NCBI RefSeq assembly: GCF_048403405.1
Contig: NZ_CP183129.1
Length of the DNA: 64,000 nucleotides
Reading direction: 5' to 3' (one strand)
Source: Escherichia coli
GTDB lineage: Bacteria > Pseudomonadota > Gammaproteobacteria > Enterobacterales > Enterobacteriaceae
Under the pieces are notes generated by a model. That model did not search any database. It saw nothing but the letters and a program-made list of their open reading frames with translations, and had not been told where the DNA came from. Positions 10,248-27,601 of the stretch are shown here, piece by piece (the stretch's first letter is position 1; each line of letters starts with the position of its first letter). The translations under genes were made by a program, and so were the position numbers.

Positions 10248-10508
10248 ATACAACTCCTCTGTGAATCGGTTTAGTCAGAAGAAGCAAAAAGACACTTTAC
10301 CGAAGGGTTTAACATTTTTTCGTGATACTCATCACCATGACGCAAATGCGTTGCATAAATTTACCCACCAAAAGTGATGCAAATCACATAAATCACTCTT
10401 CATTCTGCAGGACTGCATAAAAGATGAGCCGATTCAGGCAATGTGATTTGTTGCATGCTGACTATAGTTAACATTGCGCAACATTTTTATAAGGGTACGG
10501 AGAATACC

Positions 10509-11318
10509 ATGGCAACAACACAACAATCTGGATTTGCACCTGCTGCATCGCCTCTAGCTTCGACCATCGTTCAGACCCTGGACGACGCGATTGTGGCGGG
10601 CTTCACCTCTATCCCTTCACAAGGGGATAACATGCCTGCTTACCATGCCAGACCAAAGCAAAGCGATGGCCCACTGCCAGTGGTCATTGTAGTGCAGGAA
10701 ATTTTTGGCGTGCATGAACATATTCGCGACATTTGTCGCCGTCTGGCGCTGGAGGGGTATCTGGCTATCGCACCTGAACTTTACTTCCGCGAAGGCGATC
10801 CGAATGATTTTGCCGATATCCCCACGTTGCTTAGCGGTCTGGTAGCAAAAGTGCCTGACTCGCAGGTGCTGGCCGATCTCGATCATGTCGCCAGTTGGGC
10901 TTCCCGCAACGGCGGCGATGTTCATCGTTTAATGATCACCGGATTCTGCTGGGGTGGACGTATCACCTGGCTGTATGCCGCGCATAATCCACAGCTAAAA
11001 GCCGCAGTGGCGTGGTACGGCAAACTGACGGGCGATAAGTCGCTGAATTCACCGAAACAACCTGTTGATATCGCAACCGATCTTAACGCGCCGGTTCTCG
11101 GCTTATATGGCGGCCAGGATAACAGCATTTCGCAAGAGAGCGTGGAAACGATGCGCCAGGCGCTGCGGGCAGCAAACGCGAAAGCAGAAATTATCGTGTA
11201 CCCGGATGCAGGGCATGCGTTCAACGCCGATTATCGTCCGAGCTATCATGCCGAGTCTGCGAAAGACGGCTGGCAGCGAATGTTGGAATGGTTTACACAG
11301 TATGGTGTTAAAAAGTAA
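10509..11318 (+). CDS. ysgA: Dienelactone hydrolase family protein (YsgA-like)
   Basis: ORF open from 10443; start placed at MATTQQSGFAPAAS, which is preceded by a GGAGA SD. Alpha/beta-hydrolase features (GFCWGG nucleophile elbow). Confidence 0.85.
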   Translation: MATTQQSGFAPAASPLASTIVQTLDDAIVAGFTSIPSQGDNMPAYHARPKQSDGPLPVVIVVQEIFGVHEHIRDICRRLALEGYLAIAPELYFREGDPNDFADIPTLLSGLVAKVPDSQVLADLDHVASWASRNGGDVHRLMITGFCWGGRITWLYAAHNPQLKAAVAWYGKLTGDKSLNSPKQPVDIATDLNAPVLGLYGGQDNSISQESVETMRQALRAANAKAEIIVYPDAGHAFNADYRPSYHAESAKDGWQRMLEWFTQYGVKK

Positions 11319-11574
11319 CGCCATAGTCGCTAAATCTGATGATTAAGCTCACACAATTTCAACGATTTTTTTAATCTCAAAACCATACAGCATCAAAAAA
11401 TTTGTTGCTGTATGCCACTCTTTGACTCCCTTCACATTCGTCATCACACCACCTGCTGAATGCAAAAATTTCGTTGCTGTGCGGCAAACTTTTTTCCTGT
11501 TTTGTGCCGCTTTTCTCCTGAATACTCGTTCTCAGAACAACTGGATCGTTTAAACATCAGACAGGAGATTTACC

Positions 11575-12243
11575 ATGACGCAATCCATTTTTCAGGCTCA
11601 ACCCTTTGAATTACCTTTTGATCCGCGCACAACTGCACTGGTCATGATCGACATGCAGCGTGACTTTGTCGAAGCAGGGGGCTTCGGTGAGGCACTGGGC
11701 AATGATGTTTCACTGGTACGCACGGCTATCGCACCATGTACAGAGGTGCTGGCAGCCGCACGTCAAAAAGGAATTATGGTTATTCATACTCGTGAAGGCC
11801 ATCGTGCAGACTTAAGCGACTGCCCGCCAGCCAAACTGACGCGCGGCGGAAAAACCTTTATTGGTGAACCAGGACCGATGGGACGCATTCTGGTCAGAGG
11901 TGAAGCAGGTCATGACATCATTCCTGAACTGTACCCGGTGGCAGGCGAACCGGTGATTGATAAGCCTGGCAAAGGCGCGTTTTATCAAACCGACTTACAT
12001 CTGATTTTGCAAAACCACGGTATCAAGACGCTGATAGTTTGTGGTGTAACAACCGAAGTTTGCGTAACCACCACCGTGCGCGAAGCAAATGATCGTGGCT
12101 ATGAATGCATTATCCCGGAAGATTGTGTCGGCTCCTATTTCCCGGAATTCCAGAAATACGCCCTCGAGATGATCAAAGCACAAGGTGCCATTTTCGGTTG
12201 GGTTACTGATTCCAAAGCCATTATTGCAGGTCTGGAAGGCTAA
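11575..12243 (+). CDS. Isochorismatase-family cysteine hydrolase (RutB / N-carbamoylsarcosine amidase / biuret hydrolase-like amidase)
   Basis: 222-aa ORF with the isochorismatase-fold signature: Asp in VMIDMQRDF near the N-terminus and catalytic Cys in CGVTTEVCV. AGGAGA SD upstream. First gene of accessory operon A. Confidence 0.8.
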   Translation: MTQSIFQAQPFELPFDPRTTALVMIDMQRDFVEAGGFGEALGNDVSLVRTAIAPCTEVLAAARQKGIMVIHTREGHRADLSDCPPAKLTRGGKTFIGEPGPMGRILVRGEAGHDIIPELYPVAGEPVIDKPGKGAFYQTDLHLILQNHGIKTLIVCGVTTEVCVTTTVREANDRGYECIIPEDCVGSYFPEFQKYALEMIKAQGAIFGWVTDSKAIIAGLEG

Positions 12244-12248
12244 CGCCG

Positions 12249-13109
12249 ATGGCACAGATTACGCTTTGCGCATCGTCGTTGGGATATCTTTTCCCGCAGA
12301 ATGAAACGCAAGATTTACGTCTGCATAGCGCTTTTAAACATGCGGTAAATCTGTATTCAGAAGCGGGAACATTCATCACTCTGTTGTGTGCGCAAACGTA
12401 TCTGAATCTCCCTGATGCTGCCAGAGTCTGGCTACCTGAATGTTGGGACTGGCGAAGAGAGATTGCCCATTCCGATCCCGTTCAGTTAACCCCAGGCTTA
12501 CTGCAGACACCTCGCTTTTGTGTGGCTCTCGATAACGCAACGCTCTGGCAGCCGTCATTTGTGGGAGGAAGGCTGACACTTGAGGCGTTCCCTTTGGTTT
12601 TCCAGCACTACCCAACGATGGCATCGCAACGGCTTTTATTTTGTCTGGAGCATAACGTTCAAAGCACATTGCACCTGCCGGATAGTCTCACGCACCAGGG
12701 ATTAGCGATTATGGAACATCCAGATGCGCTGGAACGCCAGGTGCCACAACTGATCGGCTTTGGTAAAGGCTTAACGCCCGATGGAGATGACTATTTGTTG
12801 GGCTATCTGGCAGCACTCTGGTTATGGCAACTCCCTGCACCACTTGCCGATCATCAATACCGGTTGCAGCAGGCAATTGATCAACATGCGCACAACACCA
12901 CGGATATCAGTCGTCATTATCTGGAGCGTGCGCTTCAGGGACATTTTTCAGAACCGATTTGCCAGTTACTCGCACAACTGGTTGGGAGCGCATCGGCAAT
13001 GACAATCGCATCCTGTGCAGAACAGGTCATGCAATTTGGCGCAACGTCAGGAGTAGATTGCCTTGCAGGAATGCTGCATGGCTTTCGAACCCTGAACACC
13101 ATGAATTGA
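12249..13109 (+). CDS. DUF2877-family protein (YlbF/YahE/AllH-like subunit of an oxamate-carbamoyltransferase-type complex)
   Basis: 286-aa ORF starting 6 nt after the previous stop; Gly-rich motifs GKGLTPDGDDYLLGY and GATSGVD resemble the DUF2877 family as I recall it. Position matches the yahE-yahF-yahG-yahI order. Confidence 0.65.
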   Translation: MAQITLCASSLGYLFPQNETQDLRLHSAFKHAVNLYSEAGTFITLLCAQTYLNLPDAARVWLPECWDWRREIAHSDPVQLTPGLLQTPRFCVALDNATLWQPSFVGGRLTLEAFPLVFQHYPTMASQRLLFCLEHNVQSTLHLPDSLTHQGLAIMEHPDALERQVPQLIGFGKGLTPDGDDYLLGYLAALWLWQLPAPLADHQYRLQQAIDQHAHNTTDISRHYLERALQGHFSEPICQLLAQLVGSASAMTIASCAEQVMQFGATSGVDCLAGMLHGFRTLNTMN

Positions 13110-13203
13110 TTTCAACCTTTTCTCCTGTAGCTCATTTATGGCGCTACACGGGGATGCTTTGCCCGAATTTTACTATCGGGCGGAATGAAACAGGCGTAAC
13201 AGC

Positions 13204-14763
13204 ATGAAAGTTAAATATAAAGTTTTCAGTAATCTTTATCAGGACTCAGTTTCTCTGATGCAGATTTCCGCGCAAATCAGCAAGTTGCCCGGTATTCAAC
13301 AGGCCTCGGTCGTCATGGGAACACCCAATAATCTCGAACAATTGCGCGATGCGGGTCTGGGTAACGAAATCAACGCCAGTCCCAATGATTTAGTGATTGC
13401 AGTCATGGGTGAAGAAGATATTTGCAATGAAGCACTGGCACTGGCCCAGCAACGTCTGACCAGCAAACCCGATGATGAAACGGATAGTGGCATTAAAACA
13501 CCGGAAAATGTCAGCCTGGACATGGCACTGGAAGCCGAACCCGAAGCCAACCTGGCACTCATTTCTGTACCGGGAGACTACGCCGCCGCCGAAGCAATTA
13601 AAGCGTTAAACCTCGGAATGAACGTGATGATGTTCAGCGATAACGTCAGTATCGCGCAGGAAAAATCCATCAAAATACTTGCCCGAGAACGTCAGCGCAT
13701 CGTAATGGGACCTGACTGTGGAACCGCCATTGTTAACGGCATTCCGTTAGGCTTCGCTAATGTGGTGAAACGCGGAGCAATTGGTGTTATTGGCGCGTCA
13801 GGCACCGGGCTACAGGAAGTGACTTGCCGAATCGACCAGCTCGGAGCGGGTATTTCTCAGGCGCTGGGAACAGGCGGGCATGATCTCAGTGAAGAGATTG
13901 GTGGAATATCGATGCTCTTCGCTTTAGATGCGCTGGCGCAAGACGATGAAACTCGCGTAATTGTGCTGATTTCAAAACCGCCTTCACCGATCGTTGCCCG
14001 GACTATTCTGGAGCGTGCCGAGGCTTGTGGAAAACCCGTGGTGGTGAATTTCCTCGGTGCGAATCCGCATGATCTGGCACGTCCCAATATCACTGCCGCC
14101 ACCACACTTGCCAGCGCCGCCGACATCGCTGTGGCGTTACTGAATGCTCAGCCACTTCCGGCTGTCGAGACCGAGATTTCCTGCGCCGATCTCACAATGT
14201 TACAAAACGCCTGTCAGCGCCTGCCAGCCCATCGCCAGGCGATACGCGGTGTTTTCGCCGGAGGAACCTTCTGCTACGAAGCGCAACTTATCTGCCAGCA
14301 AAAGGGATTCCGCGCCGCCTCCAATACGCCAGTTGCGAGTAATCGTACTCTGGCAAATATCTGGCAAAGCGAAGATCACACGCTGATCGATATGGGCGAC
14401 GATGATTTCACCCGTGGCAAACCGCATCCAATGATCGACCCGACTCTGCGCAATCAACGTCTGCTCAACGAACTCAACGACTCACACACTGCCGTCGTGT
14501 TATTCGACCTGGTACTTGGTTATGGCGCTTCCGCTACACCTGCCAGCGAATTACTGGACCAACTTTCACACATCGACATGAATAACGCACCGTTGCTGAT
14601 TGCGCACGTTTGCGGAACGGAAGCTGATCCGCAAATACGCAGTCAGCAGATAAGCGCACTACAAAATGCGGGCATCATCATTGCCAGCAGCAATGCACAG
14701 GCGGCGCTATGGGCCAGCGTCGTTGCGCAGACTCAGTTGCAGAAAAAGGGGCTAAACGCATGA
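13204..14763 (+). CDS. FdrA-like protein (CoA-binding / succinyl-CoA-synthetase-like fold; AllF/YahF family)
   Basis: 519-aa ORF sharing long motifs with E. coli FdrA as I recall it (NLALISVPGDYAA, MMFSDNVS, MGPDCGTAIVNGIPLGFANVV, GVIGASGTGLQEV, GRPHPMIDPTLRNQ). Confidence 0.8.
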   Translation: MKVKYKVFSNLYQDSVSLMQISAQISKLPGIQQASVVMGTPNNLEQLRDAGLGNEINASPNDLVIAVMGEEDICNEALALAQQRLTSKPDDETDSGIKTPENVSLDMALEAEPEANLALISVPGDYAAAEAIKALNLGMNVMMFSDNVSIAQEKSIKILARERQRIVMGPDCGTAIVNGIPLGFANVVKRGAIGVIGASGTGLQEVTCRIDQLGAGISQALGTGGHDLSEEIGGISMLFALDALAQDDETRVIVLISKPPSPIVARTILERAEACGKPVVVNFLGANPHDLARPNITAATTLASAADIAVALLNAQPLPAVETEISCADLTMLQNACQRLPAHRQAIRGVFAGGTFCYEAQLICQQKGFRAASNTPVASNRTLANIWQSEDHTLIDMGDDDFTRGKPHPMIDPTLRNQRLLNELNDSHTAVVLFDLVLGYGASATPASELLDQLSHIDMNNAPLLIAHVCGTEADPQIRSQQISALQNAGIIIASSNAQAALWASVVAQTQLQKKGLNA

Positions 14764-16184
14764 ATACCTTATTTAATCAGCCTTTGAAGGTTGTGAACGC
14801 GGGACTACACAGTTTTGCTGACAATATTCAACATGCCGGGGGAAGCGCAATTGCACTCAACTGGCAGCCACCAGCACAAGGCGATATTGACGCTGGATTG
14901 GATCTGGCATCGTTGCTACGTCATCCACTGGTAGAAAATGCCAACCAAATCGCCATGACACGTTATCTCGAAGCACAGCCCGTGCTGGTAGATGTCATGC
15001 TCGCTAAAGAGGCCATTCCAGCAATGGCTGAACAAAAACGTATTTTGCACTCTGGCCCGCCGATTGCCTGGGAAGAGATGTGTGGTCCGGTAAAAGGGGC
15101 GATTATTGGTGCCATGCTGTACGAAGGTTGGGCCACCAGCCAGCAAGACGCTGAAAACCAGATAAACGCAGGCGAAATCGACCTTGCCCCTTGTCATCAT
15201 TATCACGCGGTTGGCCCAATGGCTGGCATCATCAGCCCGTCGATGCCGTTATGGGTGGTAGAAAACAAAACCAACGGCCACCGTACTTTTAGCAATTTCA
15301 ATGAAGGTCTGGGTAAGGTTCTCCGTTTTGGCGCCAATAACGATGAAGTTCTCAATCGTCTGGCCTGGATGCGCGATGAACTGGCGCCGGCAATGAAAGC
15401 AGCAATCGCACAACACGGCGAGCTGGAACTCAAGCCATTAATGGCGCAGGCGCTGCATATGGGGGATGAAGTTCATAACCGCAATGCTGCCGCTACCGGT
15501 TTGCTGATTAAGCGCCTGCTCCCGGCATTGCTGGCCTGCTCTCTTCCACAGGAACATATCCAGCGCGTCGTGGCATTTATCACCGGTAACGATCACTTCT
15601 TCCTCAATCTGTCGATGGCTGCCTGTAAAGCAATGATGGATGCCGCCGCCAATGTACCGTTCAGTTCAATGGTTACGGTGATGGCGCGTAACGGGGTGAA
15701 TTTTGGTATTCGGCTTTCCGGTACTGGCGATCGCTGGTTCCAGGCTCCTGCCAATGCCGTTGAAGGTCTGTTCTTCCCCGGATTTGGCGTTGACGACGCT
15801 GCTGCTGACCTGGGTGATAGCGCAATTACTGAAACCGCAGGTGTGGGTGGCTTCGCGATGGCGTCGTCTCCGGCGATCGTCAAATTTGTGGGAGGCACCC
15901 CTGCCGATGCCACCAATAACAGCCGTCGGATGCAAGCCATCACCCTCGGCGGTAACCCCGCATTTACACTTCCAGCCCTCAATTTTGCCCCCACCGCAGC
16001 AGGGATTGATGCGCGTAAAGTGACCGATCGCGGCATTTTACCGGTCATCAATACGGGTATCGCCCACAAACAAGCGGGGGTCGGGCAAATTGGTGCCGGG
16101 ATCACCACTGCGCCGATGGCCTGTTTTGTCGCCGCTGTACGTGCACTGGCGGAGATCGTCGCAAAGGAGAACCATCATGGTTAA
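14760..16184 (+). CDS. DUF1116-family protein (YlbE/YahG/AllG-like)
   Basis: ORF open from 14709; I place the start at the ATG at 14760, which overlaps the FdrA-like stop (ATGA), giving MNTLFNQPLKVVNAG. Same gene order as yahF-yahG and fdrA-ylbE. Confidence 0.75.
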   Translation: MNTLFNQPLKVVNAGLHSFADNIQHAGGSAIALNWQPPAQGDIDAGLDLASLLRHPLVENANQIAMTRYLEAQPVLVDVMLAKEAIPAMAEQKRILHSGPPIAWEEMCGPVKGAIIGAMLYEGWATSQQDAENQINAGEIDLAPCHHYHAVGPMAGIISPSMPLWVVENKTNGHRTFSNFNEGLGKVLRFGANNDEVLNRLAWMRDELAPAMKAAIAQHGELELKPLMAQALHMGDEVHNRNAAATGLLIKRLLPALLACSLPQEHIQRVVAFITGNDHFFLNLSMAACKAMMDAAANVPFSSMVTVMARNGVNFGIRLSGTGDRWFQAPANAVEGLFFPGFGVDDAAADLGDSAITETAGVGGFAMASSPAIVKFVGGTPADATNNSRRMQAITLGGNPAFTLPALNFAPTAAGIDARKVTDRGILPVINTGIAHKQAGVGQIGAGITTAPMACFVAAVRALAEIVAKENHHG

Positions 16185-17133
16185 GCCACTGGCTGTTGTC
16201 GCGGTTGGCGGCAATGCGCTCATTCAGGACGAGCAACGCAATAGTATTCCCGATCAATATGTTGCAGTGATGGAAAGCGTGCAGCATATCGTTGATATGG
16301 TTGAAGCCGGATGGGACCTGGTGCTAACCCACGGTAATGGCCCGCAGGTGGGCTTTATTCTGCGCCGCTCTGAACTCGCCAGTAACGAAGTTTCTCCGGT
16401 TCCACTTGATTACGCCGTGGGTGATACACAAGGTGCAATTGGCTACATGTTCCAGAAAGCGCTGCATTACGAATTGGCTCGCCGTGGCATAAACAAACCG
16501 GTAATTGCCCTGGTGACACAAACGCGAGTCAGCCCACATGACGATGCTTTCGCCAACCCCAGTAAACCGATTGGCGCGTTTCTCGATGAAGCAACGGCCC
16601 AACAACGCCAACAACAACTCGGCTGGACGCTGATGGAGGACGCCGGGCGTGGTTGGCGGCGTACAGTTCCCTCTCCTGCACCACTGGAAATTATTGAGCA
16701 CGACACCATCGCTCACCTGGTGCGCCAGGGATATCTGGTTATTGCCTGCGGCGGCGGCGGTATTCCGGTGGTGCGAGACGGGCAACAACTGAAAGGTGTA
16801 GAAGCCGTGATCGATAAAGATCTGGCCTCCGCGCTGCTCGCCAGTCAGTTAGGCGCAGATCTGCTGGTGATCCCCACCGGTGTAGAAAAAGTGGCGATTA
16901 ACTTTGGTACACCACAACAACAGTGGCTCGACGCTATCAGCGTTGCCGAAGCGCAAACGCTGTTGCGGGAAGGTCAGTTTGGTGTCGGCAGTATGCAACC
17001 CAAAGTGGAAGCCATTGTTGATTTCATCAATGCCAGCCAGCAACAAGGCAAACAGGCCAGCGGCCTGATTACTTCACCGCAAACCATAAAAGCAGCCCTG
17101 GCGCATCAGAGCGGTACATGGATAACCCTTTAA
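16177..17133 (+). CDS. Carbamate kinase (ArcC/YahI/AllK family)
   Basis: ORF open from 16090; start placed at MVKPLAVVAVGGNALI (the classic carbamate kinase N-terminus) with an AAGGAGA SD 7 nt upstream; 8-bp overlap with the preceding gene. Confidence 0.85.
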   Translation: MVKPLAVVAVGGNALIQDEQRNSIPDQYVAVMESVQHIVDMVEAGWDLVLTHGNGPQVGFILRRSELASNEVSPVPLDYAVGDTQGAIGYMFQKALHYELARRGINKPVIALVTQTRVSPHDDAFANPSKPIGAFLDEATAQQRQQQLGWTLMEDAGRGWRRTVPSPAPLEIIEHDTIAHLVRQGYLVIACGGGGIPVVRDGQQLKGVEAVIDKDLASALLASQLGADLLVIPTGVEKVAINFGTPQQQWLDAISVAEAQTLLREGQFGVGSMQPKVEAIVDFINASQQQGKQASGLITSPQTIKAALAHQSGTWITL

Positions 17134-17149
17134 ATCTCTGGAGAACACA

Positions 17150-17539
17150 ATGACTACAACGCTTTTAGCCGTTAACGGAACGCTGATGCGCGGCCTGGAA
17201 CTCAACCCAAATATGAAAAAAGCGGGCGGTATTTTTGTCCGTGAAGACCGAACTGACGCCCATTACCGGTTGTGGAGTATTAACGATCGCCATCCGGGAA
17301 TGATTCGCGTGAATGAAGGAGGAACACACGTCGACGTAGAAATTTGGCAATTACCGCTGGCCAGTTTTGCCGCTCTGTTAATGAGCGAACCCGCTGGGCT
17401 GGCAATTGGCAAAATCAAACTTGCCGATGGTAGCGAAGTGCTGGGCGTACTGGCAGAAAACTGGCTGACCGAAGGCCAACGGGAAATTACAGAACTGGGC
17501 GGCTGGCGCAAATACACCGGGCATTTTCATACTGTGTAA
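17150..17539 (+). CDS. Small protein resembling the C-terminal domain of allophanate hydrolase (GGCT-like fold), tentative
   Basis: 129-aa ORF. The segment YRLWSINDRHPGMIRVNEGGTHVDVEIWQLPLASFAALLMSEPAGLAIGKIKLADGSEVLGVLAENW...LGGWRKY resembles the allophanate hydrolase C-terminal domain pattern as I remember it. Assignment from memory only. Confidence 0.5.
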   Translation: MTTTLLAVNGTLMRGLELNPNMKKAGGIFVREDRTDAHYRLWSINDRHPGMIRVNEGGTHVDVEIWQLPLASFAALLMSEPAGLAIGKIKLADGSEVLGVLAENWLTEGQREITELGGWRKYTGHFHTV

Positions 17540-17564
17540 CGCGCATTTATAAAGGGAACATACT

Positions 17565-18788
17565 ATGCGTAAAAAAGAAGAGAATCTGAATACGGCATCA
17601 GGATTGCGTATTGCCATGATTTTGCTGGGTATTGCCGTCACACCTGTGCTGTTGTCATCCTCAAGCCTCGGCAATCAACTTTCCAGCGGCAGTTTAATTA
17701 GCGTCGTATTGTTAGGCGGCGTCATTCTGACCTTACTTTCAGCCATCACCATTAGCGTGGGAGAAAAAGCCCGCCTGCCAACGTATGGCATTGTGAAATA
17801 TTCGTTTGGCGAAAAAGGGGCCATCGCCATTAACATTTTGATGGCGATAAGTCTGTTCGGCTGGATTGCCGTTACCGCCAATATGTTTGGTCATTCGGTA
17901 CATGACTTACTGGCTCAACATGGACTGGAAGTTCCACTGGCACTGTTAGTGGCGGCTGGCTGTGTCATTTTTGTCGCCTCTACGGCATTTGGCTTTGCCG
18001 TTCTGGGAAAAATTGCCCAGGTTGCCGTGCCGGTTATCGCGCTGGTGCTGTGTTACATCCTCTATGTGGCAACCCATACCGAAGTGGCAGTACCAGCGGC
18101 GATTGTGGAGATGAATACAGGTGTCGCCGTTTCCACCGTTGTTGGCACCATTATTGTGCTGGTTGCCACACTGCCTGATTTCGGTAGTTTTGTGCATAAC
18201 CGCAAACATGCACTGATTGCCGCAGGCGTGACGTTTCTGGTTGCCTACCCTCTGCTCTACTGGGCGGGTGCAACGCCGAGCGCCATTAGTGGTCAGGGAT
18301 CTTTACTGGGTGCGATGGCGGTATTCGGTGCGGTTCTGCCTGCGGCGCTGTTGTTGATTTTCGCCTGCGTCACCGGTAACGCGGGCAATATGTTCCAGGG
18401 CACGCTGGTGGTTTCCACACTGCTTACCCGCTTTCCCAAATGGCAGATTACCGTGGCGCTGGGTATCCTTTCCGCCATCGTAGGCAGTATGGATATTATG
18501 GCGTGGTTTATTCCGTTTCTGCTGTTCCTGGGTATCGCCACGCCACCCGTTGCCGGAATTTATATCGCTGACTTTTTCCTTTATCGCCGTAATGGCTATC
18601 AAGAGTCAGTGTTAGCCCAGGAGTCACAGATTAAAGTGCTGACATTCGCAGCATGGATCATAGGCGCAGCGGTTGGCTTTATGACCGTAAAAGGCTTATT
18701 CACCCTGACGACGATCCCTTCGGTAGACTCGATTCTGGTGGCATGTATCGCGTATGCGATTCTCAGTCGGGCAAGTCAACACCGCTAA
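17565..18788 (+). CDS. NCS1-family nucleobase/hydantoin-type permease (CodB-like)
   Basis: 407-aa polytopic membrane protein (about 12 hydrophobic segments) with length and organisation like the cytosine permease CodB. Confidence 0.75.
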   Translation: MRKKEENLNTASGLRIAMILLGIAVTPVLLSSSSLGNQLSSGSLISVVLLGGVILTLLSAITISVGEKARLPTYGIVKYSFGEKGAIAINILMAISLFGWIAVTANMFGHSVHDLLAQHGLEVPLALLVAAGCVIFVASTAFGFAVLGKIAQVAVPVIALVLCYILYVATHTEVAVPAAIVEMNTGVAVSTVVGTIIVLVATLPDFGSFVHNRKHALIAAGVTFLVAYPLLYWAGATPSAISGQGSLLGAMAVFGAVLPAALLLIFACVTGNAGNMFQGTLVVSTLLTRFPKWQITVALGILSAIVGSMDIMAWFIPFLLFLGIATPPVAGIYIADFFLYRRNGYQESVLAQESQIKVLTFAAWIIGAAVGFMTVKGLFTLTTIPSVDSILVACIAYAILSRASQHR

Positions 18789-18865
18789 TTCCTGGGTATA
18801 CTCAGGCAATGATTACGGCTGAATCTGGAGAGATTCAGCCACTTTACCACTGACCAGGGAGCCTT

Positions 18866-19771
18866 ATGTTCATCTCAGACGAAACGCTTCGTGTTATTCA
18901 TCTGGTCGCCAGACACCAGAGCATTACCATCGCAGCCGAGCAGTTAAATAAAGTCCCTTCCGCCATCAGTTACACCATCAAGAAAGCGGAAGAGAGCCTG
19001 GGCGTTGAACTGTTCATTCGTAAGGGACGCTATATTGAATTATCGCCAGCGGGAAGTTACTTCATCGAACATAGCAAAACTATTCTTGGCGACCTGGAAG
19101 CATTAAAGCGCAACACAGTGCTGATTCACGATGGTATTGAGCGTGAACTGACAATTGCGGTAAACAATATTATTCCTGGTAATTTGCTGGTGGCATTTAT
19201 TCGAGATTTTGAACGGCAATTCACATCAACAACACTGACGGTAGATCTTGAGGTATACAACGGCTGCTGGGATGCGCTGTACAGTAAGCGTGCTGATCTG
19301 GTCTACGGTGCTCCTCATGCAGTACCAAGTAGTGAAGGCATCATTAGCGAACCGGTCGGACAAATGGAATGGGATTTTGTCGTCAGCCCACTCCACCCAC
19401 TGGCAGCGAAGCGGCATCCATTAGAAAACAGTGAATTGCGTCATTATCCAGCGGTTTGTATCCGCGATACCTCCGTTAACTTCCCCCCGATGCAAGCCTG
19501 GTTGTTGGAAGGACAAAAACCCATTTTTGTTCCTGACTTCGCTACGGCAATCGCCTTAATAGAACAAAACGTCGGTATTGGTTATATTCCACATCATCTG
19601 GCATTGCCGTTATTGAACAGCGGTAAATTGCTTAAAAAGCCAATGCGCGAACATAAACACGCCACCAAGTTATTTCTTGCCGCTCGTTCCGATGGTATGG
19701 GCAAAGCCTGTCAGTGGTGCATAGAATATTTAAGAAACCCGCAATTAATGACACGATTTGTATTTAATTGA
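18866..19771 (+). CDS. LysR-family transcriptional regulator
   Basis: 301-aa ORF with N-terminal HTH (ITIAAEQLNKVPSAISYTIKKAEESLGVELFIRKGR) and C-terminal LysR substrate-binding domain. Confidence 0.85.
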   Translation: MFISDETLRVIHLVARHQSITIAAEQLNKVPSAISYTIKKAEESLGVELFIRKGRYIELSPAGSYFIEHSKTILGDLEALKRNTVLIHDGIERELTIAVNNIIPGNLLVAFIRDFERQFTSTTLTVDLEVYNGCWDALYSKRADLVYGAPHAVPSSEGIISEPVGQMEWDFVVSPLHPLAAKRHPLENSELRHYPAVCIRDTSVNFPPMQAWLLEGQKPIFVPDFATAIALIEQNVGIGYIPHHLALPLLNSGKLLKKPMREHKHATKLFLAARSDGMGKACQWCIEYLRNPQLMTRFVFN

Positions 19772-19899
19772 CAATACAATGATAAAAATATAAGTCTTGC
19801 TTTAATTAGAGCGCCCGTTTAAATTATTTTTGTGCAGTTGACGTAACTCATGAAAATTAACCGGTCTGTTAATCATTACGTTCACTGCACACCTTCATT

Positions 19900-19940
19900 T
19901 TTTCACACCTATCCACGCCTGAAAACTATGTTATAATCAG
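19900..19940 (+). promoter_or_regulatory. Putative sigma70 promoter with extended -10 (TGTTATAAT) for the RpiR-family gene
   Basis: TGTTATAAT at about 19929-19937 in an AT-rich intergenic region, about 30 nt upstream of the ATG at 19971. No convincing -35. Confidence 0.3.
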
Positions 19941-19970
19941 CACTTTCTGTCAGAATGAAATTTACTAATT

Positions 19971-20816
19971 ATGAATAACATAACCGTAAAAAGTCTGATT
20001 CAAAGCAATTACCCTACACTGCATCAGGCGGAAAAAAAGGTCGCCGACTATATTCTTAGCCACGCACATGAAGTCGTGAACTATAGTGTCACTGAACTAT
20101 CAGAAAAAAGCCATGCCAGTGAAGCGACTATCGTGCGCACCTGTAAGAAATTAGGTTATCAGGGTTATTACCATTTAAAAATTGCATTAGCAAAAGAAGT
20201 CATTAATCCTGACAATAGCTATCCTGATAATACCGATTTTACCGATATAACGTCGCTGGCCACATTTTTATTAAAAAAACAGGCCGAAGATTTAATACAA
20301 TCAACGCAATTTTTTAATGCCGAAGTGCTTGAGTCCATTCTCAAACTACTTGCTAATTGCGATACTATTTTCTTTTTTGCTGCCGGAAATTCAAACCCTC
20401 TGGCCGTTTATGGTGCTTATAAATTCAGCCAACTCGGATTAAAAACCGTTGTTCACGTCAGCCCGGAAATGCAAATTAATGCGGCATATTCTATGGGGAA
20501 ACGCGACCTGGCGATTGGTATTTCTAACTCTGGCAGCACCAACTTAATGGTCGATATCTTTAAAGTGGTGAAAGAGCGCGGTGCCAAATCCGTTTGTATC
20601 ACTAACTATATTAAATCTCCGTTATCAAAACTCTCCACCCATCAACTCAATACCGCGGTCAGCGATAAAATCTTCTTTGAAGCCTTCGACTCCACTCGCG
20701 TTCCGGCAATGGGCGTTATTGATATGCTGGTGCTGTTGTTTATGTATAAAAACAAGGCGCATTACGAGAAATACCGCACCCGTGAAGAGTTTCTCGGCTC
20801 CCGTTTCAAGGGGTAA
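19971..20816 (+). CDS. RpiR/MurR-family transcriptional regulator (HTH + SIS domain)
   Basis: 281-aa ORF with N-terminal HTH_6-type region (SVTELSEKSHASEATIVRTCKKLGYQGYYHLK) and C-terminal SIS domain. Confidence 0.85.
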   Translation: MNNITVKSLIQSNYPTLHQAEKKVADYILSHAHEVVNYSVTELSEKSHASEATIVRTCKKLGYQGYYHLKIALAKEVINPDNSYPDNTDFTDITSLATFLLKKQAEDLIQSTQFFNAEVLESILKLLANCDTIFFFAAGNSNPLAVYGAYKFSQLGLKTVVHVSPEMQINAAYSMGKRDLAIGISNSGSTNLMVDIFKVVKERGAKSVCITNYIKSPLSKLSTHQLNTAVSDKIFFEAFDSTRVPAMGVIDMLVLLFMYKNKAHYEKYRTREEFLGSRFKG

Positions 20817-20840
20817 AAGGTCATCCTTTCACCCCTTGTG
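20810..20840. terminator. Hairpin between the convergent RpiR-family and transketolase genes (possible bidirectional terminator)
   Basis: GGGGTAAAAGG-TCAT-CCTTTCACCCC inverted repeat overlapping the rpiR-like stop codon, followed by TTGTG; 30-bp gap between convergent stops. Confidence 0.4.
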
Positions 20841-20845
20841 CAGGT

Positions 20846-22843
20846 TTAGCTATTCAGTAGCTCACGCGCCTGCGCCAGGACATTTTCCGGCGTAAAACCA
20901 AAGTGTTTGAACAACACATTCGCCGGAGCAGACTCACCAAAGCTCGTCATCCCAATGACTTTACCATCCAGACCGACGTAGCGTTCCCAGAATCCGGCGA
21001 TGCTGGCTTCTACCGCCAGACGTTTGCGTACAGCTTTTGGCAATACCGATTCTTTGTACGCCGCATCCTGATTATCGAAACGCTCGGTACACGGCATGGA
21101 AACTACGCGAACTTTACGCCCTTCTTCCGTTAACGCTTTTGCGGCGCTGACCACTAACTCAATCTCTGAACCCGCAGAAATGAGGATCATCTCAGGCTGA
21201 CCGTCACAATCACTCAGTACATAACCACCACGCGCAATCTCTGCCAACTGTGCAGCGGTGCGCGGCTGTTGCGCCAGCGGTTGGCGCGTTAATACCAACG
21301 ACGTTGGGCCATCTTTGCGCTCAATCGCCTGTTGCCAGGCCACCGCCACTTCCACCTGATCGCAACCGCGCCAGGTTTCCATATTCGGCGTCAGACGCAG
21401 CGACGCCAGTTGCTCAACGGGCTGATGTGTCGGGCCGTCTTCGCCCAGGCCGATGGTATCGTGGGTATAAACAAACACCGAGCGGATCTTCATCAGCGCC
21501 GCCATGCGCAGTGCATTACGCGCATATTCCATAAACATCAGGAAAGTACCGCCGTAAGGGATAAACCCACCATGCAGCGCAAGACCGTTCATGATGGCCG
21601 ACATACCAAATTCACGCACGCCATAGGAGATGTAATTCCCCGCCGGATTTTCCCCGGTGAAATCAACCGATTTCTGATGGCGAGTCAGGTTAGAGGGCGA
21701 CAAGTCCGCCGAGCCGCCCATCAGTTCCGGCAGCATATCAGCGAAGTGATTGAGGCATTTCTGGCTGACCTGACGGGTTGCCAGCGCCGCCGGATGGGAT
21801 TGCAGATCGTGCACATATTTCTGCATATTCTCGGCCCAGCCAGCAGGCAAATCACCCTTCATGCGACGAGTAAACTCCGCCGCCAGTTCCGGCCACTGCT
21901 TCGCGTAGTCAGCAAACAGTGCATCCCATTCCTGTTGAACCTGCGCGCCTTTCTCGGTCGCATCCCATTCGGCATAAATTTCACCAGGAATTTCGAAAGG
22001 GGCATACGGCCATTGCAGACGTTCACGCACCAGCGCCACTTCATCTGCACCCAGCGCCGAGCCGTGGCAATCGTGGCTGTTGGCTTTATTTGGTGAACCA
22101 AAACCGATAATCGTTTTGCAGCACAGCAGACTGGGCTTATCCGTGACGCTTTTCGCTTCACGCACCGCAGCATCTACCGCTTCTGGATCGTGACCATCAA
22201 CGCCTTCAATGACATGCCAGCCGTAGGCACGAAAACGGGCAGCCGTATCTTCAGCGAACCAGCCTTCTACGTGACCATCGATCGAAATACCGTTATCGTC
22301 CCAGATAGCAATCAGATTGCCGAGCTTCAGCGTTCCTGCAAGACCACAGGCCTCGTGGGAGATCCCTTCCATCAGGCAGCCATCACCCAAAAATAGCCAT
22401 GTGTGATGATCAACAATATTAAAGCCCGGTTTGTTAAATTCTGCCGCCAGCGCCTTCTCCGCAATCGCCATCCCCACCGCATTAGCTACGCCCTGCCCCA
22501 ACGGGCCGGTGGTGGTTTCAACACCCGGCGTATAACCATATTCTGGATGACCCGGCGTGCGGGAGTGGAGCTGACGAAAGTCGCGAATATCATCCATCGA
22601 CAGGTCGTAGCCTGTAAGATGCAGCAAAGCGTAAATCAACATGGAGCCGTGACCGTTCGACTGAACATAGCGGTCGCGGTTAAACCACTGCGGATTTTTT
22701 GGGTTATGACGCAGGTGACGACGCCAGACCACTTCGGCAATATCCGCCATCCCCATCGGCGCGCCCGGATGACCGGAGTTCGCTTTCTGGATCGCATCAA
22801 CACTTAACATTCGGATGGCATTAGCCAGTAATTGTGAATTCAT
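20846..22843 (-). CDS. tkt: Transketolase paralog (third tkt copy; possibly the ExPEC-associated 'tkt1')
   Basis: 665-aa ORF collinear with E. coli TktA/TktB over its whole length ([81 protein letters not shown]) but clearly divergent from both, and located in an accessory island. Confidence 0.9.
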
Positions 22844-22893
22844 ACTTCAGCTCTCTCTGTCTGGCGGGCTGAAACCAGCCCGCTAATCTCGAA

Positions 22894-24402
22894 TTAGTTA
22901 GCACAGGCCACTGTCATTTCTGTCGGGCGCGGTCTGCTCATTACGGTTTTAATTTCGTCGCGCAGGATTTGCGATTTGCCGCCAAATATCACCTGTACAC
23001 CGCCATCACCCAGTTTCACTAACCCCGCAGCCCCCAACTCCTTCAGCCGTTTTTCATTCACTTTCTTATCGTCTACCAGCGCCAGCCTCAGGCGTGTTGC
23101 GCAGGCATCCACATCTTCGATATTGTCGAAACCACCTACTGCTTCGATGATTTGGTATGGACGTTCTTCGCGCGTTAATGTGGTTGCAACGGCAATCTCT
23201 TCATCCTCACGTCCCGGTGTTTTCAGATTCAACTTGCGGATCAGTACCCGAAATACGGTGTAGTAAATCGCTGCATAGCCCGCGCCTGCCAGGAACACCA
23301 GATACCACGGCGTGCGGTTTGGCATAACGCCATTCAGTACGAAATCAATAAGACCGCCAGCAAAAGGATGACCAATGTGCACATTCAGGATGTTCATCAG
23401 CACAAATGAAGTGGCATATAAGAAGATGTGAATGATGTAGAGAACCGGAGCTGCAAACAAAAATGCATATTCCAGCGGCTCCGTAATCCCGGTAACAAAT
23501 GTGGTCAGCGCACCGGAGAGTAAAAGGCCTTTAATCAGCGCCTTACGTTCCGGTTTTGCTTCCTGATACATCGCCAACGCGGCGGCAGGTAACGCAAACA
23601 TCATGATCGGGAAACGACCTGTCATAAACAGCCCCGCCGTCAACGGAACACCGTCGCGCAATTGGGCAAAGAACACCGGAATATCGCCCGTCACCAGTTG
23701 CCCGGATTTGGTCATGTAGTCGCCAAAGTTGTAATAAAACGGCACGTTCCAGATATGATGCAGGCCAAAAGGAATCAGCGAACGTTCGCCAACGGCGTAA
23801 ATAAAGGCCGCGAAGTTCGCGTTATGCCCACTGGTCACCAGCGTTGAAAGCGACGCCAGACCTTTTTGTACCGGTATCCACAGCCACGGCAATAAATAGC
23901 CGACAATAATTGCCGCCACCGCCGTAATAATCGGTACAAAGCGTTTTCCACCGAAGAAACCAAGAAACTGAGGCAATTCAATATTGTGGAAGCGGGTATA
24001 GAGCAGATAAACAAAGATGGCGACAATCAAACCGCCAAACACTCCCGTTTGTAACGTCGGTACCCCGAGGATCATCGCATAGTCACCGTTACTGGCTGCA
24101 ACGGACTCCGCGGTAATGCCAAGTTGCGTTCCCATCGTGGCATTCATGATCATGTAACTGATAATCGCTGAAAGTGATGAAGAACCATCACCTGTCAGGC
24201 CAATCACAATACCGACACAAAACAGCAAAGGAAGGTTGGCGAAAATCAGGCCGCCGCAATTCGCCAGCAGCTCAATGTTAAATGAAATCCCGATGGCTAA
24301 AATCAAACCCGCCGCCGGAAGAATGGCGATTGGTAACATCAGAGCAGAAGAAAATTTCTGCAACTTCTTGAAGTTAAACAAGGATGTTATTTTTTTGCTC
24401 AT
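22894..24402 (-). CDS. PTS glucose-family EIICB component (EIIC domain followed by EIIB domain)
   Basis: 502-aa ORF: polytopic EIIC region, then a C-terminal EIIB domain with the phosphocysteine motif DACATRLRL. No EIIA domain. Confidence 0.85.
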   Translation of the reverse strand: MSKKITSLFNFKKLQKFSSALMLPIAILPAAGLILAIGISFNIELLANCGGLIFANLPLLFCVGIVIGLTGDGSSSLSAIISYMIMNATMGTQLGITAESVAASNGDYAMILGVPTLQTGVFGGLIVAIFVYLLYTRFHNIELPQFLGFFGGKRFVPIITAVAAIIVGYLLPWLWIPVQKGLASLSTLVTSGHNANFAAFIYAVGERSLIPFGLHHIWNVPFYYNFGDYMTKSGQLVTGDIPVFFAQLRDGVPLTAGLFMTGRFPIMMFALPAAALAMYQEAKPERKALIKGLLLSGALTTFVTGITEPLEYAFLFAAPVLYIIHIFLYATSFVLMNILNVHIGHPFAGGLIDFVLNGVMPNRTPWYLVFLAGAGYAAIYYTVFRVLIRKLNLKTPGREDEEIAVATTLTREERPYQIIEAVGGFDNIEDVDACATRLRLALVDDKKVNEKRLKELGAAGLVKLGDGGVQVIFGGKSQILRDEIKTVMSRPRPTEMTVACAN

Positions 24403-24443
24403 TTTTATTCTCCTGTAGGGTATCGAGCAAATAACGGCGACGA

Positions 24444-25001
24444 CTATTCCAGATTGGCGTGGCGCTTAAACAGTTCACTTTCCGGCGCACCACTTTCAGC
24501 AGCCATCTTCATCACTAATGCATCGGCAATCACCAGCAAAGCTTGCTCATACAACGACGCCATCGGCTGTGCCGAGCGGAAAACAGAATCTTTTTGATTT
24601 TTGGAAGGGGCATTGATTTGCACGATGACGTCGACAAACTCGGTGATAGTGGCGTGTCGATTCGTGGTTAACACCGCCACAGCGCCGCCAAGCTGACGTG
24701 CTTTTTTCGCCAGTGCCACCAGTTGTGCTGTCTCACCGGAAGCGGAAGAAACGATAAACAGATCGCCAGGCCCAAAGTTCGGCGTAATGGTTTCCGTCAG
24801 AAAGTAAACCTCTTTTCCCATATGCATCAGGCGCATGGTGAAGGCTTTCATGGAAAAGCCGGCGCGTCCCAGGCCATAGCAGAAAACGCGCTGGCTTTGC
24901 TGAATAGCGTCGATCAATTTGGTGCAGTCATCCTCACGGATAGAGTCCTTAACGAAGGTTAATTCATTGATGATCTCAGTGATGTACAGCTTTGCGTCCA
25001 T
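24444..25001 (-). CDS. SIS-domain sugar-phosphate isomerase resembling 6-phospho-3-hexuloisomerase (PHI/HxlB-like)
   Basis: ORF open to 25013; start placed at the second Met (MDAKLYITEII), which has a GAGGTG SD about 6 nt upstream. About 185 aa with FTMRLMHMG, SASGET and C-terminal HANLE, as in PHI/HxlB as I recall it. Confidence 0.7.
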   Translation of the reverse strand: MDAKLYITEIINELTFVKDSIREDDCTKLIDAIQQSQRVFCYGLGRAGFSMKAFTMRLMHMGKEVYFLTETITPNFGPGDLFIVSSASGETAQLVALAKKARQLGGAVAVLTTNRHATITEFVDVIVQINAPSKNQKDSVFRSAQPMASLYEQALLVIADALVMKMAAESGAPESELFKRHANLE

Positions 25002-25307
25002 TTCACACCTCATGAAATAATTTTCTCAAACACAAAATCTCATGAAATTTTATTTCATTCCAATGCATCAGTATGAAATGTGAAGCTAGTCACAAGAAAG
25101 ATCATAGGTTGATATGTTTTTCATTAAAAAACATATAGATATCAAGTAATTTTTAATATGTGATGGAGAGGCAGATAGAAAAAATGGCGGAAATGACGAA
25201 ATTTATTTCATGAGAAGGGAATAAAGAAGATTTTCTTAAACAGGGTATGAACTGATATCTGGAATGGTTTACGCAGTATGCTGGGAAGACGTCGCTGTAA
25301 TGAGAAA

Positions 25308-25338
25308 AGACCGGGTGGTATTACCACCCGGTTTGGAT
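25308..25338 (-). terminator. Rho-independent terminator downstream of metE
   Basis: ACCGGGTGG-TATT-ACCACCCGGT palindrome just 3' of the metE stop, flanked by T-rich tracts in both orientations. Confidence 0.5.
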
Positions 25339-25339
25339 T

Positions 25340-27601
25340 TTACCCCCGACGCAAATTCTGCGCCGCCTGCACCATGTTCGCCAGTGCCGCGCGAGTTTCT
25401 GGCCAGCCGCGCGTTTTCAGGCCACAGTCCGGGTTGACCCACAGACGCTCTGCCGGAATGCGTTTTGCCGCTTTCTTCAGCAAGGCTTCAATCCATTCCA
25501 CGCTCGGTACGTTTGGCGAGTGAATGTCATAGACGCCAGGACCGATTTCATTTGGATAATCAAACTCTTCAAACGACTCCAGCAACTCCATGTCGGAACG
25601 CGAGGTTTCGATGGTGATGACGTCTGCGTCCAGCGCCGCAATCGAATCCATGATGTCGTTGAACTCGCAGTAACACATGTGAGTGTGGATTTGTGTGTCA
25701 TCTTTCGCCACGGCGGCGTTGATACGGAAAGCCTCTACGCCCCACTGGAGATATGCATCCCAGTCGCTACGACGCAGCGGTAAACCTTCGCGCAGCGCCG
25801 GTTCATCAATCTGAATGATGCCAATTCCAGCGGCTTCCAGGTCCGCGACTTCATCACGCAGCGCCAGCGCAATTTGTTTGGCGATGGTTTCACGGCTGAC
25901 ATCTTCACGCGGGAACGACCAGCAGAGAATGGTCACTGGGCCAGTCAGCATCCCTTTCACCGGTTTATCAGTCAGCGATTGCGCATACTTCGCCCACTCC
26001 ACGGTAATCGGTGCCGGGCGGCTAACGTCACCAATAACAATCGGTGGCTTCACGCAGCGGGAACCGTAGCTCTGTACCCAACCGTTTTGCGTAAAGACAA
26101 AGCCATCCAGATGCTCGCCAAAGTATTCCACCATGTCATTACGCTCGGCCTCGCCATGTACCAGCACATCCAGTCCCAAACGTTCCTGCTCAACAATGGC
26201 CTGCTTGATATGTTCCGCAATGCCCGTGCGGTAGTTGTTAGCGTCGAGATTACCCTTTTTAAAATCCAGACGCAGGGTACGAATCTCCGTGGTTTGCGGG
26301 AAGGAACCAATCGTGGTGGTCGGCCACGCGGGCAGTTTAAAACGCGCACGCTGGGCTTCAGCACGCACTTCATAGACATTCGCACGCTGACTGTCCTGGG
26401 CGGTGATCGCCGCCAGACGCTTTTCTACTGCCGGATTATGAACACGAGTAGAGTGACGACGCGCCTGAATCGGAGCGCTCCACTCTGCCAGAGCAGCCGT
26501 GTCACCACTGTTCAGCGCATCGCGCAGCAGTGCCAGTTCATGACATTTTTGCAGGGCGAAGGCAAACCAGCTTTTCACTTCTGCATCAAGACGCGTTTCC
26601 ACGCTCAGGTCGATGGGGCTGTGCAGCAGTGAGCAGGAAGATGCCACCCACAAATCGCGTTTGCCGACAATGTCCTTAATTTGCGCATACTTCTCGGTAA
26701 GATCGGCGCGCCAGACGTTACGACCATTGATCAGACCCGCAGACAGTAGCCAGTCAGAAGGCAGACGCTTGTGCAGTTCAGCAACGTCATCTTTACCATG
26801 TACAAGGTCCACATGCAGCCCCTGAACAGGCAGCGCAGTAATCGTGTCGAGATTTGGCGTTACGCCTTCAAAATAGGTAGTCAGCAGCAGTTTCACCTGG
26901 CCCTGAAGCGCGTCGTAAGCGGGTTTGTATGCGTCCAGCCACGCCTGCGGTAGTTCCAGTACCAGTGCGGGTTCGTCGATCTGTACCCACTCAATGCCGC
27001 GTTTTGCCAGTTCTGCCAGTACTTGCTGATAAACCGGCAGAATGTCGTTTAGCAGGCTCAGGCGGTCAAACTGTTCACCTTTCACTTTCCCAAGCCATAG
27101 GTAGGTAACCGGCCCCAGCAGCACAGGTTTCACCTTGTGGCCCAGCGCCAGCGCCTCGTCCACTTCCTCCAGCAGCTGCGTCCAGGTCAGTTTGAACTGC
27201 TGGCCTTTAACGAACTCCGGCACCATGTAGTGATAGTTGGTGTTAAACCATTTGGTCATTTCCGCTGCCGCCGCAGGTTCGCCAGTCGGCGCACGTCCAC
27301 GACCAATACGGAACAGGGTGTCGATATCTACCGAACCATCTTTGTTCTGATGACGTGGCGGAACATTACCCAGCAGCAGACTGGTGGTCAGTACATGATC
27401 GTACCAGGCAAAATCGCCCACCGGCAGCAGGTCGATACCCGCCTGCTTTTGTTGATCCCAGTGACGGGCACGCAGTTCACGCCCTACTGCCAGCAGTTCT
27501 TCACGCGTGGAGTTCCCCGCCCAATAACTCTCTTGCGCTTTTTTCAGCTCGCGACGCAGGCCAACGCGAGGGAAACCGAGGGTGTGATTAAGAATTGTCA
27601 T
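25340..27601 (-). CDS. metE: Cobalamin-independent methionine synthase MetE
   Basis: 753-aa ORF starting [29 protein letters not shown]; canonical MetE length and sequence. Confidence 0.96.

Follow-up and report, generated by a model that had tools for sequence, protein, structure and literature searches.

We analysed a 64,000-nucleotide stretch of Escherichia coli DNA (contig NZ_CP183129.1 of assembly GCF_048403405.1, hereafter the window), in which a gene for a LysR-type regulator (lysR) follows seven genes with the organisation of an operon. We consider it likely that this regulator is a pathway-specific activator of the seven-gene operon directly upstream. The preliminary description of this DNA had placed a LysR-family gene at 18866-19771, in the same direction as the permease gene that it follows by 77 bp and with no divergent partner; the Pfam domains and the RefSeq coding sequence (CDS) bore out the first statement, and the coordinates and strands the second. 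The permease gene stops at 18788, leaving a gap of 77 bp (18789-18865), and both neighbours of lysR, the permease gene upstream and rpiR (19971-20816) downstream, are on the + strand. The genes of the module are the following.

11575-12243, + strand: gene 1, cysteine hydrolase of the TrtA/BiuH (triuret/biuret hydrolase) family (Pfam Isochorismatase)
12249-13109, + strand: gene 2, AllH-like (DUF2877) subunit (Pfam PF11392 AllH, E = 3.7e-27)
13204-14763, + strand: gene 3, FdrA/AllF-like subunit (NCBIfam FdrA subfamily, 497 bits against a cut-off of 433)
14760-16184, + strand: gene 4, AllG-like (DUF1116) subunit (Pfam PF06545 AllG, E = 8.6e-99; RefSeq CDS concordant)
16177-17133, + strand: gene 5, carbamate kinase (TIGR00746 arcC, 365.8 bits against a cut-off of 358.25)
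17150-17539, + strand: gene 6, stand-alone allophanate-hydrolase C-terminal domain protein (Pfam PF21986 AH_C, E = 7e-42)
17565-18788, + strand: gene 7, NCS1 (cytosine/purine-type) permease (Pfam Transp_cyt_pur)
18866-19771, + strand: lysR, 301 amino acids from an ATG start (RefSeq CDS identical)

The product of lysR is a LysR-type regulator of the usual length of about 300 residues, with a helix-turn-helix domain (HTH_1, PF00126, residues 7-63, E = 3.1e-16, 59.5 bits against a Pfam cut-off of 26.6) and an effector domain (LysR_substrate, PF03466, residues 89-290, E = 6e-28, 98.2 bits against a cut-off of 28). A Shine-Dalgarno sequence, GGGAG, is found at 18855-18859, 6 nt before the ATG, and the N-terminus MFISDET is kept in orthologues in an alignment of 20 LysR homologues. 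The protein matched no solved structure at E <= 1e-15.

RefSeq and the profile libraries were concordant on seven genes before lysR. The label of a carbamate kinase operon, given in the preliminary description, is a fair one, but the kinase is the fifth of the seven genes. Profile scores place gene 1 in the TrtA/BiuH group at family level only: it reached 279.8 bits with the NCBIfam BiuH model (NF050097), under the equivalog cut-off of 370, and its best solved structures were 6xix (270.6 bits) and 6azo (237.5 bits), which we take to be the triuret hydrolase TrtA and the biuret hydrolase BiuH, respectively. Gene 7 scored 145.7 bits with the NCBIfam cytosine permease model, under its cut-off of 326.

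Same-strand linkage of lysR and the operon

LysR homologues were collected from one genome per species and the window proteins were mapped onto the 67 returned loci. Of the 51 species loci with a LysR of at least 46% identity, 50 had a co-directional operon next to lysR; the remaining one, that of Cupriavidus, has no operon. The linked loci span Enterobacterales, Vibrionales, Alteromonadales, Pasteurellales, Neisseriales, Burkholderiales and Xanthomonadales. In 39 loci (Enterobacterales, Silvimonas, Amantichitinum, Dyella, Paraburkholderia and Caballeronia) lysR is located 3' of the operon, while in 11 (Vibrio, Photobacterium, Shewanella, Motilimonas, Halomonas, Thorsellia and Avibacterium) it is located 5' of the operon by about 250-580 bp; none of the 50 linked loci showed a divergent arrangement. 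At 38% identity or below, 15 of 16 loci lacked the operon, and that of Mannheimia exhibited a different arrangement, carbamate kinase-lysR-fdrA-allG. Avibacterium (L043 and L047) carries two tandem lysR plus fdrA-allG-type clusters, both co-directional, in which the second LysR paralogue is 38% identical. The same-strand placement had been described as unusual. It is indeed less common for the family, but it is conserved in Gamma- and Betaproteobacteria and has a precedent in xapA-xapB-xapR, and from these gene orders it can be regarded as a conserved design rather than an accident of this window.

The module belongs to an accessory island of E. coli located between ysgA and metE, and the segment 11319-19970 was matched in 1559 of 5426 complete E. 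coli genomes with 90-100% identity. Its right-hand boundary was located by comparison with other genomes.

19749-19753, no strand: right-hand end of the module, where homology to E. coli E69, Citrobacter and Buttiauxella ends; it resumes at about 25344, beside metE

The interval is filled in the window by an rpiR-tkt-ptsG-hxlB block (19749-25344; the third gene is ptsG-like) that is missing from E. coli E69, Citrobacter and Buttiauxella, and which, judging from this comparison, is a separate, later insertion between lysR and metE. The insertion junction falls within the last lysR codons, so that the C-terminal tail of the window LysR differs from that of E69 LysR. Because the block is a separate insertion, we assigned the regulator to the upstream operon and rejected the possibility that it serves the rpiR-tkt-ptsG-hxlB block. 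The gap between lysR and rpiR contains a 16-nt inverted repeat with 88% complementarity (19831-19846 and 19876-19891, TGTGCAGTTGACGTAA ... TTACGTTCACTGCACA), which may be a candidate operator for an RpiR-family regulator.

The probable operon promoter and its putative LysR boxes

The preliminary description had proposed that LysR might act on the ysgA-biuH intergenic region (11319-11574), upstream of gene 1. Conservation in this region defined the following elements, whose positions are counted from the inferred operon start.

11340-11353, + strand: upstream CRP-like site TGATTAAGCTCACA, at about -187; TCACA at 11349-11353 invariant in 14 enteric genera
11391-11409, + strand: distal LysR box CATCAAAAAATTTGTTGCT, centre at about -135, 26.9 bits
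11423-11436, + strand: second CRP-like site TGACTCCCTTCACA, between the two LysR boxes, centre at about -104; TG and CACA conserved
11460-11478, + strand: proximal LysR box ATGCAAAAATTTCGTTGCT, putative recognition site, centre at about -66, 23.8 bits
11482-11500, + strand: conserved element GCAAACTTTTTTCCTGT (GAAATCATTTCGCTGT in other genera) over the -35 position, putative activation site; AAA, TT and CTGT columns invariant or nearly so in 14 genera
11521-11526, + strand: -10 hexamer AATACT (TATACT/TATAAT in other genera); ATACT invariant

The 320 bp upstream of gene 1 were taken from every locus, and a 19-nt weight matrix was refined on 40 loci, E. coli excluded. On the 64-kb window the top two matches of this matrix were the distal and the proximal box, and the next unrelated match scored 12.8 bits. 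In shuffled windows the best score was 14.1 bits on average and 20.9 at maximum, and none reached 23.8. Over about 0.9 Mb of fetched loci, matches of at least 15 bits were mostly found upstream of gene 1. The proximal box is at a constant distance from the -10 element in at least 40 loci of Gamma- and Betaproteobacteria, and from E. coli to Caballeronia the elements keep the same order and spacing, with about 6 nt between the proximal box and the conserved element and about 20 nt between that element and TATACT/TATAAT. The distance from distal to proximal box is 69-83 bp in most Enterobacterales and about 104 bp in Serratia, one locus being unscored, and the distal box precedes the proximal one by about 100 bp in most Vibrio-type loci. 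The operon start, placed from the -10 element, would be at about 11534 in a conserved CAGA. No recognisable -35 was found at this promoter, as expected if it is activator-dependent. With a dyad box near -66 and an element over the -35 position, the geometry is that of a textbook LysR-activated promoter.

The 9-bp perfect inverted repeat that had been reported at 11384-11414 is present as described (CATACAGCA at 11384-11392 and TGCTGTATG at 11406-11414) and can be extended to 14-nt arms with 93% complementarity. As a regulator site it is correct in part: the repeat overlaps the distal box, but only its inner core, GCATCAAA-N3-TTTGTTGC (11391-11409), is conserved, while the CATACA/TGTATG arms are specific to E. 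coli. The repeat could instead be the terminator of ysgA, since it is located 66 nt past the ysgA stop and could form a 14-bp AT-rich hairpin, or a chance palindrome, a perfect 9-nt repeat having appeared in 5 of 300 shuffles of 11319-11574 (1.7%). Both readings are hardly credible, because the core shares its motif with the proximal box. Moreover, no T-tail follows the repeat, the core is kept in loci where the upstream gene is not ysgA (Citrobacter amalonaticus, Edwardsiella, Serratia, Rahnella), and Citrobacter has a separate GC-rich hairpin after ysgA. The comparative evidence links the regulator to this intergenic region, on whose promoter it very probably acts, but the key promoter-proximal box at 11460-11478, which is the more conserved of the two, had been missed.

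A search for T-N11-A motifs, which had been suggested as a check, gave counts at chance level in all three intergenic regions, with 22 occurrences against 22.1 expected in 11319-11574 and 4 against 4.2 in the 77-bp gap before lysR, and such counting is uninformative as a check. The orthologous boxes of Vibrio-type loci read ATCAAA-N3-TTTGAT, that is ATC-N9-GAT.

If LysR were independent of the operon and controlled the rpiR-tkt-ptsG-hxlB block or distant loci, the boxes would be sites for another factor, for instance PunR, a characterised E. coli regulator of the same family whose operator resembles them. Distant targets are possible for LysR regulators. In Rahnella and relatives (L017 at 11911 and 12043; L021, L024 and L044) two extra boxes of 15-21 bits are found 1-2 kb 3' of lysR, before a gene for a LysE-type exporter; these may mark a second target in that genus, and they too would agree with a regulator that acts elsewhere. 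We nevertheless consider such independence very improbable. The linkage of regulator and operon holds in 50 of 51 species and persists across orders that differ in the position of lysR, and the boxes occur wherever the regulator does, Betaproteobacterial loci included. The rpiR block, absent from E69, Citrobacter and Buttiauxella, is a later arrival, no other box rises above noise in the 64 kb, and the two boxes score 24-27 bits compared to 15 for the PunR site.

The two CRP-like sites flank the distal LysR box, and in 14 enteric genera the TCACA half of each is invariant. The pattern TGA-N6-TCACA was matched 6 times in the 64 kb against 1.7 expected, another match being at 10375-10388 in the udp-ysgA gap. 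This conservation suggests a catabolite co-control of the operon, the assignment of the sites to CRP being tentative.

The gap before lysR

The 77-bp gap between the permease gene and lysR contains the following elements.

18796-18802, + strand: -10-like element GTATACT, putative weak lysR promoter, 8 nt after the permease stop (-10 hexamer at 18797-18802)
18817-18840, + strand: stem-loop GGCUGAAUCU-GGAG-AGAUUCAGCC, no U-tract, predicted -15.7 kcal/mol

Among 15 enteric sequences, TAT was invariant and GTATA(A/C)T nearly so in an otherwise variable gap. RNAalifold performed poorly on the 15-sequence gap alignment, in which Serratia was misaligned, and the stem-loop was assessed by per-genome folding and by pair counting on 11 enteric sequences. 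In these, 8 of 11 pairs exhibited compensatory changes and 95.9% of the cells were paired; none of 500 shuffles equalled the hairpin in paired cells, double changes or covariation score. Among the other 3'-end loci in which the permease-lysR gap is short, nearly all have a hairpin at this position (Amantichitinum is an exception), and in Serratia sp. DD3 both the -10-like element and the hairpin stay beside lysR despite an extra transporter gene after the permease. A T-run follows the hairpin, like in intrinsic terminators, in Rahnella, Silvimonas, an Enterobacter and a Caballeronia. Rfam, queried over 11200-20100 at a permissive threshold, returned only Mu-gpT-DE at chance level (E = 0.76), so no known riboswitch, leader or small RNA explains the hairpin. 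For the operon transcript it would be a partial terminator or a stabiliser of the 3' end, and for the lysR mRNA the 5' stem-loop. The matrix scan found no LysR box in the gap.

We slightly favour an arrangement in which lysR would have a weak promoter of its own (-10 at 18797-18802) and be expressed at a low level, while the hairpin at 18817-18840 would restrict read-through from the induced operon and, by forming the 5' end of the lysR mRNA, cap it. Pure co-transcription is the live rival to this promoter: lysR would be the eighth gene of the operon, reached only by read-through from about 11534, with positive feedback as a result and the hairpin serving solely as an RNA stabiliser. The shared strand, the 77-bp gap and an E. 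coli hairpin devoid of a U-tract would all fit, as would the lack of any called terminator or promoter in the gap and of a -35 before the putative -10. We regard it as unlikely, since an activator made only from its own activated promoter needs another basal source. In addition, GTATA(A/C)T is preserved in a variable gap and moves with lysR, and the gap of some genera contains true terminators. Finally, lysR is upstream of the operon in 11 species, and in Budvicia an opposite-strand gene intervenes between lysR and the operon; from these gene orders, lysR necessarily forms its own transcription unit in the 5'-end loci and in Budvicia.

Activation of the operon can then be pictured as follows. 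LysR would be bound at the proximal palindromic box (11460-11478), whose centre lies about 66 bp upstream of the inferred start, and would probably also touch the conserved element over the -35 position and the distal box (11391-11409). Upon sensing a substrate or an intermediate of the operon, it would recruit RNA polymerase to a promoter with a good -10 and no -35. Its effector is likely to be an acyl-urea, for instance triuret, biuret or carboxybiuret, or a related ureide.

Several observations weigh against this model. A consensus promoter and terminator scan of 11200-21000 made no call at the inferred operon promoter, which we explain by its poor -35, and none in the 77-bp gap; in the scanned region promoter-like sites were fewer than in shuffles. 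The putative lysR promoter has no recognisable -35 either, and in several genera a T-tailed, terminator-like hairpin stands between the -10-like element and lysR, which is awkward for an own promoter. The E. coli boxes, in the register of the Vibrio-type ones, read ATC...GTT and TGC...CGT and do not spell T-N11-A. The PunR operator scored only 15.3 bits with our matrix, a similar-scoring chance match lies inside gltX, and the core-genome PunR might itself recognise such boxes. Searching the literature with RefSeq protein accessions returned no papers naming these proteins; the sole description that we found is a genome-comparison table in which the region, called 'GR 29', is accompanied by a speculation on pyrimidines (PMC12928451).

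The operon substrate and known LysR systems

The operon encodes the same three subunit families as the AllFGH oxamic transcarbamylase, together with a carbamate kinase like AllK (PMC11326118, PMC9843812). It differs from them in its order, H-F-G-K, and in its extra TrtA/BiuH-like hydrolase, AH_C protein and NCS1 permease. Island proteins are reported to be 40-46% identical to their K-12 paralogues (PMC12928451). The substrate is probably not oxalurate, and the gene context points to a different acyl-urea: gene 1 is TrtA/BiuH-like and is combined with an AllFGH-like phosphorolytic transcarbamylase set, a carbamate kinase and AH_C, and in nitrifier genomes biuH is co-located with allFGHK and codB (PMC12625717), which argues for the same class of substrates. 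We tentatively raise the possibility, which we hold to be rather doubtful, that the regulator and the operon form an undescribed ATP-yielding route for acyl-ureas (triuret, carboxybiuret, biuret), LysR being the sensor for this compound class. Such a route would start with the preparation of the substrate by the TrtA/BiuH-like hydrolase. Phosphorolytic cleavage by the AllFGH-like complex would then yield carbamoyl phosphate, from which the carbamate kinase would make ATP. Constraint differs strikingly between two proteins of these operons: identity across E. coli, Vibrio, Halomonas and Caballeronia is 80-87% for the TrtA/BiuH-like protein and only 25-60% for the AllH-like protein of the same operons.

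A variant of the module was found on a plasmid contig of Klebsiella michiganensis (L022, 825-10903 and 15948-17852), in which a ring-opening amidohydrolase of the AtzD/TrzD (cyanuric-acid-hydrolase) family replaces gene 1. The order there is an unknown 411-residue protein, the AtzD/TrzD amidohydrolase, a xanthine/uracil permease, AllH, FdrA, AllG, carbamate kinase and lysR; the LysR is 66% identical and on the same strand, and a full-length allophanate hydrolase is encoded nearby. The segment from gene 1 to lysR is also present on 82 PLSDB conjugative plasmids, 78 from E. coli and 4 from Klebsiella, many of them from poultry. On the IncF plasmid pAPEC-O2-ColV (NC_007675.1, 3300-11700) the module is about 94% identical to the chromosomal copy and its promoter has diverged, the proximal box scoring 13.6 bits and the distal box being lost; in this old record gene 1 is apparently frameshifted. 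The Klebsiella variant, with the same regulator, and the carriage on ColV-type plasmids, of which many come from poultry isolates, both fit the acyl-urea reading. Triuret can arise from oxidised uric acid.

A module whose substrate and control are uncharacterised is present in about 29% of complete E. coli genomes and on 82 conjugative plasmids. For its control, the analysis provides a concrete regulatory model, with two putative operator boxes, promoter elements at defined coordinates, a dedicated PunR/AllS-clade activator and a conserved hairpin before the regulator gene. A reporter combining the promoter and the regulator would allow a direct screen for the inducer, and the inducer would in turn reveal on which substrate this AllFGH-like transcarbamylase pathway acts. 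The uncharacterised chemistry of the pathway is more novel than the placement of its regulator.

Among characterised families, the window LysR scored best with PunR (YdhB), the adenine-responsive activator of punC, at 285.9 bits and 34% identity over 294 residues, and did not reach the cut-off of 345 bits of the PunR equivalog (NF008294). The recognition-helix region is VPSAVSYT in PunR and VPSAISYT in the window LysR, and the type of operator is shared, a palindrome with a TCAAA-N-TTTGA core (PMC8376909). The 15.3-bit site of PunR, CTGCAAAATTTTTGAAACC, is the best match of our matrix in the 4-kb K-12 punR locus; it is located in the punR-punC gap and was shown to be bound by PunR using ChIP-exo, fluorescence polarisation and electrophoretic mobility shift assays (PMC8376909). 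The chance expectation for such a match in this 112-bp gap was 0.0004 from shuffles and about 0.008 from real unlinked DNA. We regard this match as modest supporting evidence, not as proof. The layouts differ: punR and a single MFS transporter gene are transcribed divergently, whereas the window lysR is co-directional.

AllS, the activator of allDCE and allFGHK in the anaerobic allantoin pathway, is 34% identical to the window LysR, which scored 213.6 bits against the NF007501 cut-off of 372. In its pairing with an AllFGHK-like operon, the window LysR has a precedent within its clade, since AllS activates the paralogous allFGHK operon (PMC12535856). Unlike the window lysR, allS is about 14 kb from allF and divergent from allA. 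No convincing box was found by the matrix in the allD-allF or allS-allA regions of the K-12 all locus, the best matches being inside coding regions.

For gene order, the closest parallel is the xanthosine catabolism operon xapA-xapB-xapR of E. coli K-12, where xapR, like the window lysR, is 3' of the operon, on the same strand and directly after the transporter gene. The xapA operon is reported to have two upstream activator sites, and xapR to be a separate, constitutive and non-autoregulated unit (PMC7205307). The gap before xapR is 251 bp compared to 77 bp here, and the substrates differ. Constitutive expression was reported for xapR; for lysR, the own promoter that we favour is suggested indirectly by the conserved -10-like element. 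The matrix found no box in the xapA promoter of K-12, the best matches in the xap locus again being inside coding regions, and XapR is absent among the 25 best NCBIfam matches listed for the window LysR. Divergent transcription, which together with negative autoregulation is a typical but non-defining trait of LysR regulators, is not seen for the window lysR. By these profile scores and gene orders, the window LysR is an uncharacterised member of the PunR/AllS clade, with a layout that is less common but not new.

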